A stretch of DNA of 64,000 nucleotides from Eledone cirrhosa (Eukaryota), in contig OZ024743.1 in assembly GCA_964016885.1 (NCBI GenBank), positions 160,022,001 through 160,086,000 on the forward strand. Reading direction: 5' to 3'. Positions 6,140-46,984 of this stretch are shown one piece after another (position 1 is the first letter of the stretch; every line of letters starts with the position of its first letter). Both the position numbers and the translations under genes were made by a program. The notes below the pieces were generated by a model that was not told the origin of the DNA, searched no databases, and saw only the letters and a list, made by a program, of their open reading frames with translations.

Positions 6140-6277
6140 TCATCATTTTACGATCGTTTCTAGGATATATATGTGTGTGTTGGTATGTATATCATATAGA
6201 TCTATGTAAATTTTTTACAAACTATCAGAGAAAATATACATACCTACACATATATATGCTGTCTTCAGAAATAATGA
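6140..6277 (-). ncRNA. Hammerhead ribozyme with ~101-nt helix II
   Basis: tcattattt-CTGAAGA-[atatatatgtgt/acacatatatat and ggtatgtatat/atatacatacc stems]-GAAA-cgatcg-TA-aaatgatga. Confidence 0.8.
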
Positions 6278-18202: not shown

Positions 18203-18255
<53 letters not shown>

Positions 18256-18302
18256 AATGAATAATAACAGGTAGACATCATAAAAAGGTAATTTATTCCG
18301 AG

Positions 18303-18425
18303 TGCTTACAAATCTTTCAACAGTAGTTATACAGCCTAGTCATGCTATGTGCAGTTGATAATTAATAATTATTTGATTGCAGAAACTCAATTTTCCAATG
18401 CTGCGACTACCATTTCCTCAGAGCA
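18303..18425 (-). ncRNA. Hammerhead motif with ~96-nt helix II, family D
   Basis: tgct-CTGAGGA-aatggtagt...actactgtt-GAAA-gatttg-TA-agca; helix III imperfect. Confidence 0.65.
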
Positions 18426-18520
18426 GAATGGTTAAAATGTAAATACCCTCGTATTTCTTAAAGGAAGTTATTGGAGAAGATATAGTAGAAAGGAAGAGAG
18501 AAAGAAGGGGAGAGGGAGAT

Positions 18521-18612
<92 letters not shown>

Positions 18613-18870
18613 GTTGGGGTTGGAGAAATGGGAGAGAGTGGTTTGAAGAATACAGTTAGCTTAATCAAAATGATGTGGTAGAGGTTTTATTTTACTGTTT
18701 ATTCTCAAGGTGACAGCCTCTTAGGCATTGTGTTGAGGTGGTCAAGATTGGTATTATTTATTGCCACAGAGAGCAGGTTCATTGATGTGGAGAGGGAGTG
18801 TGGTAGACCGAGAGCGAGAGAGATAGAGAAGGAGATATATATATAGAGAGAGAGAGGGGAGAGAGAGAGG

Positions 18871-18942
<72 letters not shown>

Positions 18943-19592
18943 AAGAGAGATAGAGAGGAGACAGACGAAGGCTACGAAATAGGGAATTCATCGAGTTCAT
19001 GGTTGTAGTCTGCAAATCGCACTCAAGTACCCATTTATAATGATAAGCAGGGTATTGGCATGTAGTGTGGGGGTGAGGGATATAGTTATGAAGTAATTAT
19101 TGAGACGAATTAGTTAGCGAGAAAGCGATGTTGTAATCACGGGTTCAAATGTTAAGTTATTTTATAGTGAGAGAATATAGCCTTCAGTTTGTGGTTGCAG
19201 TATAACGATCGTTCGATTCTGTTATTTCTTAATTTGTTTTGGGATTTTAAGATATAAAAGAGTTCAAGGTTGCATAACCTGCAGTATTTCAATCCACTCC
19301 GATATGCACTAGCGCTGAATAGTTTATCCCATTTCAATGTAAACAGCTGGTTGCATTCTCGGAGTTGCCAGGTCCGAGACTGCAACATCGCTTTCTCGCT
19401 AACTAATTCCTCTCAATAACTACTTCCTAACTATATCCCTCACCCCCACACTACAAGCTAATACCCTGCTTATCATTATAAATGGGTACTTGAGTGCGAT
19501 TTGCAGACTACAACCATGAACTCGATGAATTCCCTATCTCGTAGCCTTCGTCTGTCTCCTCTATATCTCGCTTTCTTTCTCTCTCCCTTCCC

Positions 19593-19652
<60 letters not shown>

Positions 19653-19799
19653 TATTTTCCGTTGTGTTGTAATATAAATATTACACACAGTAGATTATCA
19701 GCTCACGTAGAGTTTGCTCGACGGTTCCAGTTGTAGTTCCAAAAGTAATCCGGAGAAAAATAGAAAGATTTGAATGGATACAGTTTAGTTGAAAGGAAT

Positions 19800-19916
19800 T
19801 TATTGACACGTGTTTCTATAACAGTTACATAACCTAAAACAGCTATCTACAAACTTTTAGTTATGCAGACATTCAATATTTCAATGTTATTATTTACTGT
19901 CATTTCATCAGAATAA
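19800..19916 (-). ncRNA. Hammerhead ribozyme with 88-nt helix II (inverted copy)
   Basis: Reverse complement of 22581-22697. Confidence 0.85.
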
Positions 19917-20120
19917 TATTACTGAGGACCTATTTAGTTTTTATAGAGAATATTAGGAGGGAGGGGTGAAGTTGTTAGAAGAATAGTTGAAGGAGTGGTT
20001 TTTCGATAGCAGTGAGAATTCTTGGTGGCAGTGAGTAATTAGATTCCCATCTGTTGTTTTGACATTTTTTATAGAATATATTATTGGTTATTTTTCTAAA
20101 TCTATAGAAGGATTGAAACT

Positions 20121-21632
20121 TTGAATAGAGCCATTAAGTTTGCTAAGGATAACTCTGACCTTACAAACGATGAAATTAAGATTATATTAGAAGCTAGGAA
20201 AACTATAGTCAAATTTGAGAACAGTTATTGGGTACGTAAAGATAGACCCTCTAACTTTGACATAACAATGGGCTCTAACGATTCGGCGGAAATAACTGAT
20301 ATTGTGGGGTTATTTATCGCCTTTAGACTCCAGGAAAAATTCAGCAATCTCCACGGCGGAATATACCGCGACGATGTTCTCCTCCTAGCTAAAAACCTTA
20401 ATAACCAAAAACTAGAAAAACTACGCAAAGATATAAGAAAACTACTACTCGAAATAGGACTAACTATAACATATGAATACAACCTTAAAGTAGTTAACTT
20501 CCTGGATGTCACACTCAATTTAAACTCTGGTTTGATTAAACCGTTTCATAAATTGAATGAAAATCTCAAATACGTAAATGTTGGGTCTAACCACCCCATC
20601 TCTATAATTAAATCTATCCCTAAAAATATTTCCCTTAGAATCTCGGGTCTATCTTCTAACATACAAGTATTTAAGGAACACGCCGAGTACTACGATAACG
20701 CCCTTAGTAAAGCAGGCTACCTCAACAAAATAGAGTACATAGATGGGAACAATCAAAACACCCAAAATAAATCCCACATAGGTAGATATAATAACACAAC
20801 ACCAAACCACACTTACTACCATAGTATGCACACCAGTAAACCAACAAACAAAACTAATAGAAAGCGATGCAAAGAGTACTTATGGTATAGCCCCGAATAC
20901 AATAGCTCCATTAGTACAAATTTACCAGTACTCTTCTTTAAAATAATTAAAAGACATTTTCCCACATCACACAAATACCACAAAATCCTAAACCCTACCA
21001 CTATAAGACTGTCATACTCTACAGCGTTAAACCTTGAACAACACATAAAAAAGATCAATACTAGAAGGTTAAACGAAAACACTAAGAACTTAAGTACAAA
21101 GAACCCCAAAAAAACAGTAGACAATACACTACAGAACATAAATATACCACACCTAAGTTCGTCCGCAATACTACTCCAGAGAAAACCCAACGTACACAAC
21201 TGTAACTGCACCTATCCTGACAACTGCCCCCTCGGCAATAACTGCCTGGAAAAAAATATTATTTATAAGTGTACCATTAAATCCGGAGGCAACGAGTGGT
21301 ATTACGTGGGATCAACGGCAACATCGTTTAAATCTCGATTGTATAGGCATTCTTACTCAATAAAACACCAGAGCCAAAGAAATGTAACAACTTTAGCAGA
21401 AAAAGCTTGGACGCTCAGGGATAGCAATCAAAAGTTTACCCTAAAATGGGAAAAATTAGCTAAAACCCAAAGCTTTTCCAGGAGCCAAAATTTCTGCAAA
21501 TTGTGTAATCTTGAGATTTATTACATAATCACACACAAGAAGAAACTGCTGAATAACAGAATTGAACGAACATTATTCTGCCGTCACAGAACTAAAACCC
21601 TTTTTTCCCACTACAAGCAGAATATTACATAA
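20121..21632 (+). CDS. PLE polyprotein, N-terminally truncated: RT C-terminal half plus GIY-YIG endonuclease
   Basis: FDITMGSNDSAEI.DIVG, GIYRDD, NFLDVTLNL, CNC..PDNCPLG.NCL, IIYKC..YYVGST..FKSRLY.H, CKLCNLE, NNR.E..CRH. The frame begins at the inversion junction, so the start codon is not native. Confidence 0.92.
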   Translation: MNRAIKFAKDNSDLTNDEIKIILEARKTIVKFENSYWVRKDRPSNFDITMGSNDSAEITDIVGLFIAFRLQEKFSNLHGGIYRDDVLLLAKNLNNQKLEKLRKDIRKLLLEIGLTITYEYNLKVVNFLDVTLNLNSGLIKPFHKLNENLKYVNVGSNHPISIIKSIPKNISLRISGLSSNIQVFKEHAEYYDNALSKAGYLNKIEYIDGNNQNTQNKSHIGRYNNTTPNHTYYHSMHTSKPTNKTNRKRCKEYLWYSPEYNSSISTNLPVLFFKIIKRHFPTSHKYHKILNPTTIRLSYSTALNLEQHIKKINTRRLNENTKNLSTKNPKKTVDNTLQNINIPHLSSSAILLQRKPNVHNCNCTYPDNCPLGNNCLEKNIIYKCTIKSGGNEWYYVGSTATSFKSRLYRHSYSIKHQSQRNVTTLAEKAWTLRDSNQKFTLKWEKLAKTQSFSRSQNFCKLCNLEIYYIITHKKKLLNNRIERTLFCRHRTKTLFSHYKQNIT

Positions 21633-21955
21633 AAGAGGGACATCCCCCAACTATATAAACCTTAATCTAGTTAGAAAAATATAAAAACAATCTCTTCTCA
21701 ACATATATTAATAACCTTAAATTACCATACTAATAATGAAAAGATATGCTGATGAGAATAGGTACAAATATGCGATAATGAATGTGTCTAAAAACGTCCA
21801 TAAGTATGTATATATATGTGAAAATGTATATAAATAAGTAAATATATATATATGTTTGATGTGTATAGTTAGATGTAAGTGTATTCATGTATTAAAGTGC
21901 TTATATATATATGTGTGTGTGTATATGTATATATGTGTATATATGTATATGTATG

Positions 21956-22011
<56 letters not shown>

Positions 22012-22580
22012 TATGTGTGTATGTATGTATGTGTATATGGATGTGTATGTATGTGTATGTGTGTACACATGGACTAGAGTATGTATGTATATATGTGTGT
22101 GTCTATACGTGTGTATATATAAAGATAAGTTGAGTATGAAAATGTATACACATGAGCGCGTATGTATGTACATGAATACATGTGTGTATATATATGTGTA
22201 TGCATGTGTATATATATGTAAGTATGAATATGTGAATTGTGAGTATATGTATTTTGTAGAGGTGTGCAAATATATTTGTGTGTGAATGCGTGGGTGAAAG
22301 AATACGTACACTTGAAAGAAAAATTTAAGTCTGAATGTTAAGTGCAAACACAAAACCAACCACGCATATCTTTACTATCTCTAATCCTTCTATAGATTTA
22401 GAAAAATAACCAATAATATATTCTATAAAAAATGTCAAAACAACAGATGGGAATCTAATTACTCACTGCCACCAAGAATTCTCACTGCTATCGAAAAACC
22501 ACTCCTTCAACTATTCTTCTAACAACTTCACCCCTCCCTCCTAATATTCTCTATAAAAACTAAATAGGTCCTCAGTAATA

Positions 22581-22697
22581 TTATTCTGATGAAATGACAG
22601 TAAATAATAACATTGAAATATTGAATGTCTGCATAACTAAAAGTTTGTAGATAGCTGTTTTAGGTTATGTAACTGTTATAGAAACACGTGTCAATAA
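22581..22697 (+). ncRNA. Hammerhead ribozyme with 88-nt helix II and GUC cleavage triplet
   Basis: ttatt-CTGATGA-a atgacagt...actgttat a-GAAA-cacgtg-TC-aataa. Confidence 0.85.
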
Positions 22698-22731
22698 ATT
22701 CCTTTCAACTAAACTGTATCCATTCAAATCT

Positions 22732-22781
<50 letters not shown>

Positions 22782-22981
22782 CCCTCGGTCTACCACACCC
22801 CCTCTCCCCATCTATGAACCTGCTCTCTGTGGCAATAAATAATACTAATCTTGACCACCTCAACACAATGCCTAAGGGCTGTCACCTTGAGAATAAACAG
22901 TAAAATAAAACCCCTACCACAACATTTTGATTAAGCTATCTGTATTCTTCAAACCACTCTCTCCCATTTCTCAAACCCCAA

Positions 22982-23049
<68 letters not shown>

Positions 23050-23052
23050 TCA

Positions 23053-23102
<50 letters not shown>

Positions 23103-23199
23103 CTATCTCCCTCTCCCCTTCTTTCTCTCTTCCTTTCTACTCTCTCTTCTCCAATAACTTCCTTTAAGAAATACGAGGGTATTTACATTTTAACCATTC

Positions 23200-23322
23200 T
23201 GCTCTGAGGAAATGGTAGTCGCAGCATTTGAAAATTGAGTCTCTGCAATCAAATAATTATTAATTATCAACTGCACATAGCATGACTAGGCCGTGTAACT
23301 ACTGTTGAAAGATGTGTAAGTA
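23200..23322 (+). ncRNA. Hammerhead motif with 96-nt helix II, family D (inverted copy)
   Basis: tgct-CTGAGGA-aatggtagt...actactgtt-GAAA-gatgtg-TA-agta. Confidence 0.65.
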
Positions 23323-23526
23323 CTCGGAATAAATTACCTGTTTATGATGTCTACCTGTTATTATTCATTCTTTATCTACACTCCGGAATACAGAAGGATC
23401 TGAAACTAAATTTTCCGGCTATTCTTCGTAACTCGTTAGGTAACCTCTCACGGTACGTCAACTCTATCTAGTGTAGTAATTAACCATTACTGCATTCAGC
23501 ATAACTCTAAGCATTTCTTGCATAAC

Positions 23527-23616
<90 letters not shown>

Positions 23617-23621
<5 letters not shown>

Positions 23622-26232
23622 ATAATAATAAATTTGAAGACTAAAATCCAAAGAGGGTTCGATAAGGATAAATATATATCAAATATATAAGAACCGTAGA
23701 GCAAAGTTTAAGCAAAGAATCGGTACTTTCACCCTTAACGGGATCTTCTGAAATTAACGAAGTCAATCTGTAAACGCAGAAGTGGATATTTAAAAAAACG
23801 TTGCAACCGGAGGAAGACAGGAAGACAATACTTTGGTTCGTGGAAACGTTCCCTGGCAAAGAACGGGAAAAACGAATATAATACGTCATTAATAGGAGCG
23901 GTTAAAAACAATTACACGCAAAGACAGAACCAGGTATATGGTATAAAAGAAGTCGTAGACTAATGTTCTCTTAGGTGGTTCATAGAGACTTTCTCTGGCA
24001 ATGAACAGAAAAAACGAAGATAATACGTCATATGTGTTGCGTGGAGAACAATTGCACGCAAAGACAAAACCAGGTAAATGGTATAGCTGAAGTCGTAGAC
24101 TAAAATTCTAACTAGGAATCCGAATGAATCTCCGCTTCAGAGTTAAGAATAAAGTAAATGATATACAATACGGAGGTAATAGAAACAAATAATACATACA
24201 CGCATGCAAATACGTACATACACAAGCATACGCGAAAACACTTGCCATAGGTATACAAAACCACGCACATATAAATATATGTATGTGTGTGTGTGCGTGT
24301 ATTCAAATAAATAAATAATTAAATAAACGTATATAAATAAATAAATATGTATATAACAAGCGCACACACATACCTACAAGTAAATACACAAATGTTCGGA
24401 GACGACGTCAGCCAAAACATGAAGTACACAATACACACACTCTACATACGTACGAACCTCCATACTCACACATACGTAAAACTCCCGCATACGCATAACC
24501 AAACCATATGTACAAGAATATATAAAAAATTATACGCCATAACATATACAATCAAATATACATACGAGAAAGTATACGTACTTTAACAAAACATACAGGT
24601 ACTGTATAATTACCTATGCAAATAAGTAACGGTATAAACATAACATATACTTAGCTACCACATCAAGACGTAAAATATCCACGTATAGATCGTACTATCC
24701 GTTAGGGTATAACGTGGGGCTGTAAATCATGAAAGTTTTGTGCAATTTATGTTTACAAGCCGAAATTGCCTCAGATTTTTGTTTAAGATGTGGTCTGTGG
24801 CGTAGAGTATTTCCAGGGCCTCAGCGGCACAGAGGTCACATGGTCTTTTATTACCGTTATACGATCTAGCCCTAGCTAGAATCTCCCAGTGTAACTTATA
24901 TTGGGTGTGGTTGTCTTTTAGACTCCAGGTATAATCTGAAAGTGACATCGTATTCCTTCTTAGAGGGTAACGAAAAGAATGGGTATGCAAGTAAAGACGC
25001 TGCTTGAATCTATTGGCGGTTAACCCTATGTAGGCCCTACGGGACGTGGGTGTTTCAACCTTACATTTGTAGACAATGTTACTAGAGAGGTATTTCCCGG
25101 ATAGGAGGCAATCAACCCGATTCCTACAATTACAGTTAGTACTAACTACAGGGTTGCACGTGTTCCTACGACTAGGTAGTTTAGCTAAATTTGAAGCTGT
25201 GATGTTATGTGCAAGGTTAGGAGTCGTAGAGTAAGAATTGTAATAGTATTTCTATTAAATATTTTACTATATTTATGTGTAGGGGGAAAATGCTTCGTAA
25301 TAAAGGAAAGAAAGATCTTAGCTAATGGTGTGGCCACCTCCAAATTATATGGTCGGTTATACAAACAAATGCGACGGGATCTATTTCTTCTAGGTCTATT
25401 TTCGTACTCTGTATATGCTACCTTATAGACAAATCCACTCCGAGCAAGACCTTCATTGTAATAAGTGGAATGGTCGTTGAAAATATGCTCGTTAGTAGAT
25501 AGACGGGAAAGCCTCAACGAAACGTTTCTTACCAGGTTCTTGGTTATGCTGGCAGGATGGTTTGGATGCTTTCTTATGTAATTAAGCGTATCATTCGGCT
25601 TTCTATAGGGGTAATACAACCCATTCGATAAATTGAGGGTAACGCCGAGGTAATTAACGACCGAGAGATTGGCCTCAACCTGTATAGAGAGGTTGAAGCC
25701 TTTAAAGAAGGCTGTGAGTTCTTTTCTGAACCCGTCGCAAGCACGAGGTCCGCACTTAGTCATGGTTAAAAGACCATCATCACGGTACAAACGCGTTGGG
25801 GAATTCGTCCTTGATAGAGAAAAGAAGGAAAAAGGCGGATAAGATCAGTAACCTCCGCAGAATCGCTGGCGCCCATACTCACGCCGAATGGGGTACTATT
25901 GGATTTGTTAATCCAAATAGAGTCGTCGAAATTAATCACCAACTTACGGGCATTGAGGATGACATCAACTTCGAAATCCTTAACCACTGTGAGTCTTTTA
26001 GCGAAATTGCTAGCTCTAAGGAGAAGTGGTAAAGTGATGGAGGAGTAGTAATTGTTGATGTCGAATTGGATAAAACGGCAATGTTCCTTGTTACATATGC
26101 CGTTGAACCAATCAATCACCGCGAAAGAATTGTTCCACAGTGCAAGAGGGGACAAACTTCTAATTTCAGGTGTAATTCTATCAAGAATCCTTTTACTAAG
26201 GGCTTAAACTTTAATCTGTTATTTTAATAAAT
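23617..26232 (-). mobile_element. PLE family B: degenerate RT and GIY-YIG, pseudo-LTR with CAGAAGA HHR at 23705-23755, short inverted 5' piece at 26202-26232
   Basis: FIQFDINNYYSSI, MGASDSAEVTDL, LYRDDGLL, CDLC..E in ORFs 25766-26155, 25185-25790 and 24727-24990. Confidence 0.92.
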
Positions 26233-45052: not shown

Positions 45053-46984
45053 ACGTTAAGAACGGCGTTCGTGAAAGTGAAAGTCAATTTTTTGATAAGT
45101 GAATATGTTTTTTGTTTTTTTTTACAATGAAAGTGTACACACGAAATTGTATGGATTTCTTAAAATATATATATGTGTGGGTGTGTATATGTGTGTATAT
45201 ATGTGTGTACACTGTGAATTTGTTTGTTTATTTACAACAGGTCTCTATAGTGATATGGTGTTAATTAGTATTGCGTGTGTGATTCTTTTTCTTTTTCTTT
45301 TTTTGTGTATTGTGTGTACGGAAAATTTTTTTTTAAATAATGACATTGTGTGTTGAAATAAATAAATTTGTTTTAAATAACTACATAGTTAGACGTTTGT
45401 TGCATATAACATATAAATTGACGTACCTTATCAACATCCTTATTAGACCGTATAAATAGCTGAAATACAGTTGATCATCTCGCCAAACTTCTTTGCACCA
45501 ACTCTCTGCCGCCAAAGAAATTCAGCTAAATATGAGGGGAATAAAGCGTCGCTTGTCCCATGTTGTCGACGAAGCTTTTTCTTTGCACGGCTCCAAGTGT
45601 TCTCTATGAGTTGTGTGTGCACATTAGGGTCTTCAGGATCGACAAAGTTCCGTTGGCGCACAACAACATCATGGAGGTAAATGCCACCTTGAATGTCTTC
45701 AATATCAGAATAGGAAGCCCAACCATCATGATGTGGCTTCCTGGCAAAATCCATTCCTGTATGATGGGGACAAGAGTCTCACGGCTTCGATCTGGGACTT
45801 CGATGAGGCAGCAGCGTCCAGAATGGCGTTCTACAGCGCCGAACACCCAGTGGCCTTGTCTCCACTGGCCACGATGATACTTTCTATGAAAGTATTTTGA
45901 TTCGTCGATCTCTACAATGATCGACGAACCATTCTCATCGAATCCTCCAAGCTGTTGAGGATTCGCCTCCAAATACTGCTCACAGATTTCTCTAAGGAAA
46001 TTGCACCAGTCTATAATTGTCGGCTTGCTAAGTACTGTTTCTCTCATCATCTCAGTTTGGGCATGATCGTTGCACCCCATATACATAATGCCAATAAGTT
46101 GTTCGAGTCGAAGATGGCTTCGATAAAATATAGAATTCCCTCGCACCGATTGACAAAATGTGTCGCGGCAGCATCGCCATCTCCATTTATCAATCCCCTC
46201 AGAATATCTTCTCAATGTGCACGCCTCATTGCAGAGAGAACAAAACACACTGTTCGCCAACAGACGCCGACTCGCAAACCACTGTAACATACACAACGTG
46301 TCACCGTGTATCGCCGGACACAGCGTATACATTGTTTCAAAGTGATTAACAATAGCATTGGTATCCAAAATATCTTCAACTAACTTAACGCGACCAAACC
46401 CTCGTGCAGCCATATTTGATGTGACACTGTATCCAGCCCTTCGGTGCTTCGTTTAGAAAATAAAAAAATGTCCCAGCCCTTCTGACGCCTATCTGCCTTT
46501 CTGACCCCAAGCTGCCCCTCTGACCCAAATCCCTTATCATTCTCTGTCCTTCTTATGACCCGGCTTTAATTTCTTTGTGGACAGATAGTTGGTGCCAACA
46601 ACTTTGGCAAGATATTACAAAAACATCTAAACGATGATGATGACACAAACACATATATATATACAAACACACATATATATATATACATACAGACACACAT
46701 ATATATACACACATATACACACCCACACATATATATATAAGAAAAAATAATCACACACGCAATACTAATTAACACCATATCACTATAGAGACCTGTTGTA
46801 AATAAACAAACAAATTCACAGTGTACACACATATATACACACATATACACACCCACACATATATATATTTTAATGAATCCATACAATTGCGTGTGTATCG
46901 TAACTTTCACTGTAAAAAAAAAAAAAAATTTACTTGTCAAAAAATTTACTTTCACTTTCACGAACGCCGTTCTTAACGTATGTC
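45048..46984 (-). mobile_element. Merlin (IS1595/ISXO2-like) DNA transposon with ~235-bp TIRs
   Basis: TIR GGCATACGTTAAGAACGGCGTTCGTGAAAGTG at 45048-45285, inverted at 46745-46984; flanks compatible with a 9-bp tatatatat TSD. Confidence 0.92.
45443..46413 (-). pseudogene. Merlin DDE transposase with one frameshift near 45730
   Basis: C-x2-C zinc motif, VEIDESKY..RKYHRG..WVFG.VER, PGS.I.[fs]DGW.SY, NFVDP..VHTQ.IENTW. Confidence 0.92.

Follow-up and report, generated by a model that had tools for sequence, protein, structure and literature searches.

Why do Penelope-like elements (PLEs) keep hammerheads that barely cut and that are needless for insertion in vitro, and what could a second helix of almost a hundred nucleotides do in such a ribozyme? 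The question is raised by a 64,000-nt stretch of the Eledone cirrhosa genome (assembly GCA_964016885.1, contig OZ024743.1, positions 160,022,001 to 160,086,000, forward strand; hereafter the window, in whose numbering features are given), where a PLE family that we call D carries a hammerhead with an expanded helix II in both of its arms. A first-pass annotation had proposed that the expansion is an inherited, selected trait of a PLE sublineage. At this locus and among its relatives in the genome we observed the motif itself, a clade that carries it, compensatory changes, near-invariant loop letters and two fixed end sites downstream of the predicted cut. Our reading is that this clade inherited the helix II arm, of 75-100 nt, and that selection has probably kept it as a folded platform for two identical internal loops that putatively bind the element's protein.

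The family D hammerhead and its long helix II

Our scanner found 14 hammerhead motifs in the window, both family D arms among them. Each arm has the type I core, with CUGANGA, GAAA and UH in order, and reads CTGAGGA, 96 nt, GAAA, 6 nt and TA (23204-23318 on the plus strand, 18307-18421 on the minus strand). In the right arm, where the motif (23200..23322, +) was found by the scanner and in the sequence directly, helix I is formed by 23200-23203 and 23319-23322, the core stands at 23204-23210 and the 96-nt helix II region at 23211-23306, followed by GAAA, GATGTG and TA, with the predicted cut after 23318. The motif of the left arm (18303..18425, -) has GATTTG as its helix III 6-mer and a predicted cut after 18307. 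Helix I (tgct with ag(c/t)a) has 4 pairs and the base of helix II pairs at 9 of 9 positions, with base-pair probabilities of 0.87-1.0 at positions 2-9. Core, helix I, base stem and the 96-nt length are all as first annotated. The canonical first pair of helix II, G10.1-C11.1, is replaced by A-U or a mismatch in all 15 families tabulated.

The motif is not a product of chance, since controls on reversed sequence were nearly empty. An unbiased sample of 60 evenly spaced 10-kb stretches (600 kb) gave 52 motifs and its reversed sequence 0, and the long-arm pattern CTGANGAAATG N70-100 GAAAC NNNN GTH gave 3214 matches against 4 in the reversed control. Most of these matches belong to a young PLE family, Y; a version of the pattern that excludes Y gave 295 matches against 6. 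The helix II regions of the 52 sampled motifs measured 13-18 nt (15 motifs), 26-38 nt (25), 51-61 nt (8) and 94-116 nt (4), and this last group is a sizeable class in an unbiased sample that short-helix descriptors and Rfam miss. Indeed, the Rfam hammerhead families gave 0 matches in the window at the gathering threshold and none at E<=10 within 22500-23400, a search that is insensitive here since it missed the short-armed motifs of the window too. The sampled stretches (L229-L288) hold about 87 motifs per Mb, which would amount to the order of 250,000 motifs if they are typical of the genome.

The two arms are the ends of one inverted Hydra-type PLE insertion. Self-comparison resolved a single family D insertion, in which a minus-strand copy (18252-19391) is followed by an inverted counterpart on the plus strand (19374-23529); a family Y element, whose own 355-nt arms are 100% complementary, sits in an internal (TA)n of this second copy and divides it. 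The two D arms differ at 6 of 141 positions and have two private changes in common, one being C15.2 to G; they therefore come from one template or were converted, and count as one observation. The use of both arms as evidence in the first-pass annotation thus holds for the motifs but not for their independence, and its limits, 18303-23322, are those of the motifs, the D copy itself extending to 18252 and 23529.

Membership of the Hydra clade was assigned from motifs, our trees being built on per-copy rows with unnamed homologues as outgroup rows. Both (TA)n insertion and a hammerhead in the terminal repeat, which are features of that clade, were found. The endonuclease (EN) C-terminus of family D (FTLKWDKLF..CRLCNLELF..NNRIER, 19149-19391, -) is 49% identical to that of Y over 77 aa, and longer D copies are 50-75% identical, confirming the relationship that had been noticed between the two C-termini. 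This likeness runs along the full 785-aa Y frame, a single frame with reverse transcriptase and C-terminal EN as in the Hydra clade, the RWK and DKT motifs being read in Y only; the CxCX5C linker, and CxxC and CxH around a conserved E and N, are present in two D copies (L139 and L049) and in Y.

In both window arms the 6-mers place G·G at 15.2/16.2 of helix III, and these two copies are therefore likely inactive, judging from hammerhead structure. A family D search of the species' own 3.0-Gb genome yielded 2220 first-look candidates, of which 40 were scored, and 57 distinct copies were compared. CATTTG (CAUUUG in RNA) stands in 44 of them and an intact core together with C15.2-G16.2 in 41; G·G was found in both window arms and in 0 of the 55 other copies. 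The imperfect helix III is a private C-to-G change of the locus: its description in both copies was right for the window arms and not for the family, whose majority has the core and restores the C15.2-G16.2 pair. The family 6-mer is an imperfect palindrome whose predicted dimer duplex is weak (-2.9 kcal/mol, with -10.3 for Y and -3.2 for short-armed TATATA families). At one locus (L138/L037, G000:C1:332.14 Mb) a D copy has its arm deleted to 45 nt, with base stem and core kept.

Inheritance of the long arm by one protein clade

Hammerheads were assigned to families by pairing each with the nearest upstream EN. These links come from many copies for families Y, D, E, H, F, K, N and R, from three for T and from one each for M, J, Q, O, V and S; that of family G was inferred from an inverted copy plus its likeness to F. 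Trees were built on per-copy rows, using 58 of 63 rows (five short rows dropped), 35 rows or 25 rows. The topology (J,H),(E,(D,(M,Y))) came out of every one of them, its members having arms of 77-96 nt, and this clade is supported at 98/96 in the 25-row tree and with an SH-aLRT of 98 in the other two; a quick mixture-model tree agrees on the long-arm clade. With 15 families labelled as long-armed (75 nt or more) or not, the labels require 2 changes on the tree, and as few were reached in only 4 of 2000 shuffles. Helix II length is thus not random across the protein tree, and our results support inheritance of the long helix II, as had been proposed, by a clade of six family groups. That F and G (101-116 nt) join this clade is neither shown nor rejected (p-AU 0.29).

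Compensatory changes and the fold of the arm

The evidence for covariation comes from other families, since two copies at one locus could not show it. At positions 5/6 of helix II, D and M have G-C and U-A, and 33 of 46 Y-lineage copies (a sample not proportional to copy number) have A-U and C-G; the remaining 13 have one or two G·U pairs at these positions, and none is unpaired. With the steps from G-C through G·U to A-U still present in living subfamilies, compensatory RNA evolution is cleanly recorded here. Across 13 anchored families, pairing was above partner shuffles in all five stem classes tested: 46 of 52 cells were paired in helix I (24.9 by partner shuffle), 70 of 78 in the helix II base (55.5), 43 of 52 in the stem inside loop 1 (29.5) and 33 of 39 in the stem outside loop 2 (19.0), each with 0 of 5000 shuffles. 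Helix I and the helix II base do differ in sequence and still pair, as the first reading had it.

The same data bear on the possibility that the conserved letters act at the DNA level, as a promoter or as an endonuclease recognition site in the terminal repeat, pairing being secondary. PLE terminal repeats are known to contain promoters (PMC6765202), but conservation here tracks base pairing through G·U intermediates, and the fixed letters form scattered islands of 1-2 nt on opposite strands of the hairpin, which makes a DNA signal very improbable.

The arm interior folds better than equal-length upstream untranslated region (UTR) in 17 of 20 families (mean z of -2.0 versus -0.3). RNAalifold, run on a sequence-only alignment of 16 family majorities in which the 5' side of loop 1 was misaligned, returned no consensus structure. 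The architecture of D had been called the same as that of its relative, and for the base stem, the next stem and both internal loops this stands; it does not for the middle stem, which is largely unpaired in D, nor for the arm as a whole, which folds like its shuffles. Nor is the length identical, the arm of Y in the window having 88 nt.

Two identical internal loops

Comparison of the families revealed a recurring loop, 5'-A N U-3' opposite 5'-A G-3', in which A faces G, N is bulged and U pairs with A. It is present twice, about 10-12 nt apart. In the right arm of the locus, loop 1 (23224..23291, +) has A23226 facing G23289, a bulged U and the U-A pair, and loop 2 (23236..23282, +) has A23238 facing G23280, a bulged G and the U-A pair; the left-arm equivalents are 18399/18336 and 18387/18345. 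Of 14 families, 7 have the double loop, and in 300 shuffles no loop type was reached by more than 4. Once the loops were anchored in 13 families (three second loops being placed by hand), the letters A/U/A/G were found to be kept in 13, 13, 13 and 13 of them for loop 1 and in 12, 13, 13 and 13 for loop 2, most positions next to the loops agreeing in 4-10 of the 13. The bulged base may be U, A or G, and loop 1 is closed by C-G in some families and by U-A in others. Furthermore, only four columns inside the arm are invariant in a sequence-only alignment, and each of them falls at a loop. The loop letters are not mutational cold spots, since in inserted D copies they decay like the rest (15 changes in 449, or 0.033, versus 137 in 3648, or 0.038). 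To our knowledge, no named RNA motif matches this A·G/bulge/U-A loop. Selection on the expanded helix II, the other half of the original proposal, is thus borne out in helix I and at the base of helix II and, further out, in the loop letters and in the stem that separates the two loops; the support does not extend to the arm tip or to arm length as such. Separately, a family of uncertain lineage with arms of 61-63 nt has one such loop in both copies seen (L260:2717 and L117:2147).

Several observations weigh against a selected platform. The partner shuffles ignore relatedness, the seeds were partly filtered for pairing and the anchors were picked on structure; the loop motif, too, was defined on the same families in which it was tested. 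A single loop was found in 10 of 14 families against a shuffled best of 9.7, which loses significance when every loop type is taken into account. Family D, which has both loops, missed the strict double-loop test (spacing of 12 versus 9), and a hold-out made of 6 decayed single copies gave 0 strict and 3 relaxed matches against 1.3 expected. Families I, L and P (3 of 16 of related type), as well as AD and AE, are without the loop, and F/G and one family with 61-63-nt arms carry a single copy of it. A 3-nt deletion beside loop 2 is common to 15 of 36 Y copies, that of the window included. The D arm is no more stable than its shuffles (z of -0.29 and -0.74 for the window arms), D being an exception, with -0.1 for the family interior, beside Y (-4.35) and F (-6.13). 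Finally, families K, R and S are young and abundant with arms of 36, 54 and 12 nt.

Some of these points (the z of the D interior, the success of short-armed families and the long arms without loop) favour an arm that is tolerated bulk, in which loop II, free in minimal hammerheads, would have grown through errors of fold-back copying, under selection for no more than a fold that lets the core form, the loops being there by descent. Arm length that varies from 75 to 116 nt, a tip that does not align and the location at the tip of 4 of 6 shared D indels speak for it as well. Such an origin is nevertheless unlikely in our judgement: unpaired letters are fixed across protein distances of more than one change per site while their paired neighbours swap, and selection for stability only would favour closing the A·G mismatch. 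Somewhat less probable still are RNA-RNA tertiary contacts, in which the loops would touch helix I or a partner hammerhead and raise protein-free cleavage. Loop-loop contacts between stems I and II speed natural hammerheads (PMC3088659), and the loops do lie about equally far from the core in every family; they stand, however, 14-32 nt out along the arm, past a helix I that counts 4-6 pairs and, unlike the loop letters, is free to vary in sequence.

Copy ends and a possible role of the arm

Copy ends were counted with no bases required 3' of the cut, in 118 copies of five families. Ends at the cut site itself were rejected (0 of 118); copies end instead at two sites downstream, about +54 and +213 past the cut in D and +42 and +155 in Y, and likewise in the short-armed K. 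Such ends fit internal initiation on uncut RNA, as described for a Poseidon PLE, whose hammerhead needs its protein to cut and whose template is the RNA left uncut (PMC11167929). In three tandem Y copies an ATG lies 206-209 nt past the cut, so that cleavage there would define a 5' end. In both nested elements of the window (19651-22737 and 18252-23529) the near site is where the copy with the open reading frame (ORF) remnant ends, and the inverted copy extends to the far one, which suggests two priming events at different RNA positions in each.

If the arm is indeed a folded platform kept by selection for the two loops it holds, these would be binding sites for the protein of the element, close to where reverse transcription starts, and they may gate cleavage. 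Cleavage of intact family copies would be weak and would take place in pairs held together by the near-palindromic helix III; where copies stand in tandem, it would give the RNA of the following unit its 5' end. On the copied RNA the 3' hammerhead would stay uncut, its arm some 55-210 nt from the reverse transcription start. A more specific version, which we put forward tentatively, makes helix II a docking module whose two tandem loops, one helical turn apart, would bind the element's own (dimeric) reverse transcriptase-endonuclease in a protein-gated ribozyme. Were this true, it would be a natural ribozyme of this kind, in which the protein marks the template and decides whether the RNA is cut or copied. 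In family Y the long arm with its two fixed loops offers a precise mutation handle.

Other features of the window and other hammerheads

The minus-strand D copy (18252..19391, -) is 5'-truncated and holds the EN C-terminal fragment, a 3' UTR with microsatellites and the hammerhead, ending about 55 nt past the cut site in (TA)n. The first part of the inverted copy (19374..19650, +) mirrors 18904-19142 and is interrupted at the internal (TA)n; the second (22738..23529, +) ends about 211 nt past the cut site in (TA)n. Between them lies the young Y element (19651..22737, +), with a 5'-truncated ORF (20100-21632) whose 510-aa remnant found no family match in Pfam, and with hammerheads at 22586-22692 (+) and 19805-19911 (-) that carry CACGTG. 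Family Y has many intact 785-aa frames, and also copies that are 99-100% identical. The family F hammerhead (6149..6268, -), with a 101-nt arm and one loop copy, belongs to a more distant lineage and served for comparison only. A 282-aa frame at 45604-46452 (-) resembles an ISXO2/Merlin-type transposase in its motifs.

Other hammerhead variants were also seen. Family N (23601-25309, -, in the window; L310-L328) has the core CAGAAGA, with U4 changed to A, a 13-nt helix II and a real helix III of 4 pairs, and this hammerhead is kept in 13 of 20 copies scanned. The U3-A8 core variant (TTGAGAA) is found in two young families, R (L435, L389-L394) and S (L436); R, whose helix II region has 54 nt and whose helix III is long, may cut as a monomer. 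At L281:4697-9139 (G000:C3:255.0 Mb), six hammerheads with 51-nt arms and helix III CTAATTAG are spaced by multiples of about 556 nt, in a retrozyme-like tandem array. A metagenome pattern scan gave, among the matches listed, 0 of 118 loci that passed the helix I/II filter and no Hydra-type frame. Contigs of four runs aligned to Y contained known variants only, and such data cannot show cleavage.

Comparison with known systems

Hydra-clade PLE hammerheads (Craig et al. 2021, PMC8557442) have, like those described here, a type I core in the 3' terminal repeat, a short helix I and a short palindromic helix III, together with (TA)n insertion and the RWK, DKT, CxCX5C, CxxC and CxH motifs. Across the 26 Hydra rows of File S2, loop 2 measures 3-10 nt and helix II as a whole does not exceed about 24 nt, against 75-116 nt with internal loops here; helix II at the D locus has about four times the length known from published relatives. 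The longest arm in that file, of 53 nt, belongs to a Chlamys-clade element. The G10.1-C11.1 pair that our families lack is also absent from many of its Hydra rows.

The minimal, dimeric PLE hammerheads of Cervera and de la Pena 2014 (PMC4209133) resemble those described here in a weak, palindromic helix III for which dimers are predicted to be necessary, in sequences that vary strongly from family to family with compensatory changes, and in the U3-A8 core variant. They differ in the G10.1-C11.1 pair, absent in the families here, and the larger-than-usual helix II in the portions of that paper available to us is one of 6-8 base pairs, with no long arm or internal-loop module. Nor did the literature searched (including Perreault 2011, PMC6765202, PMC13725137 and bioRxiv 2026.07.22.740005, each in part) describe long helix II arms in PLE hammerheads, although Lunse et al. 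2017, on dimeric PLE hammerheads, or the supplements of Cervera 2014 could hold some.

The Poseidon element PAc of the green anole (Frangieh et al. 2024, PMC11167929) belongs to another clade, and yet it has two fixed copy-end sites downstream of its hammerhead and an uncut RNA template. Its end sites lie 30-40 nt apart, against 90-180 nt here, and protein-assisted cleavage, which was demonstrated for PAc, is a prediction for the long-armed families. Set beside these systems, the long-armed Hydra-type hammerhead is a real, new variant of a known association.

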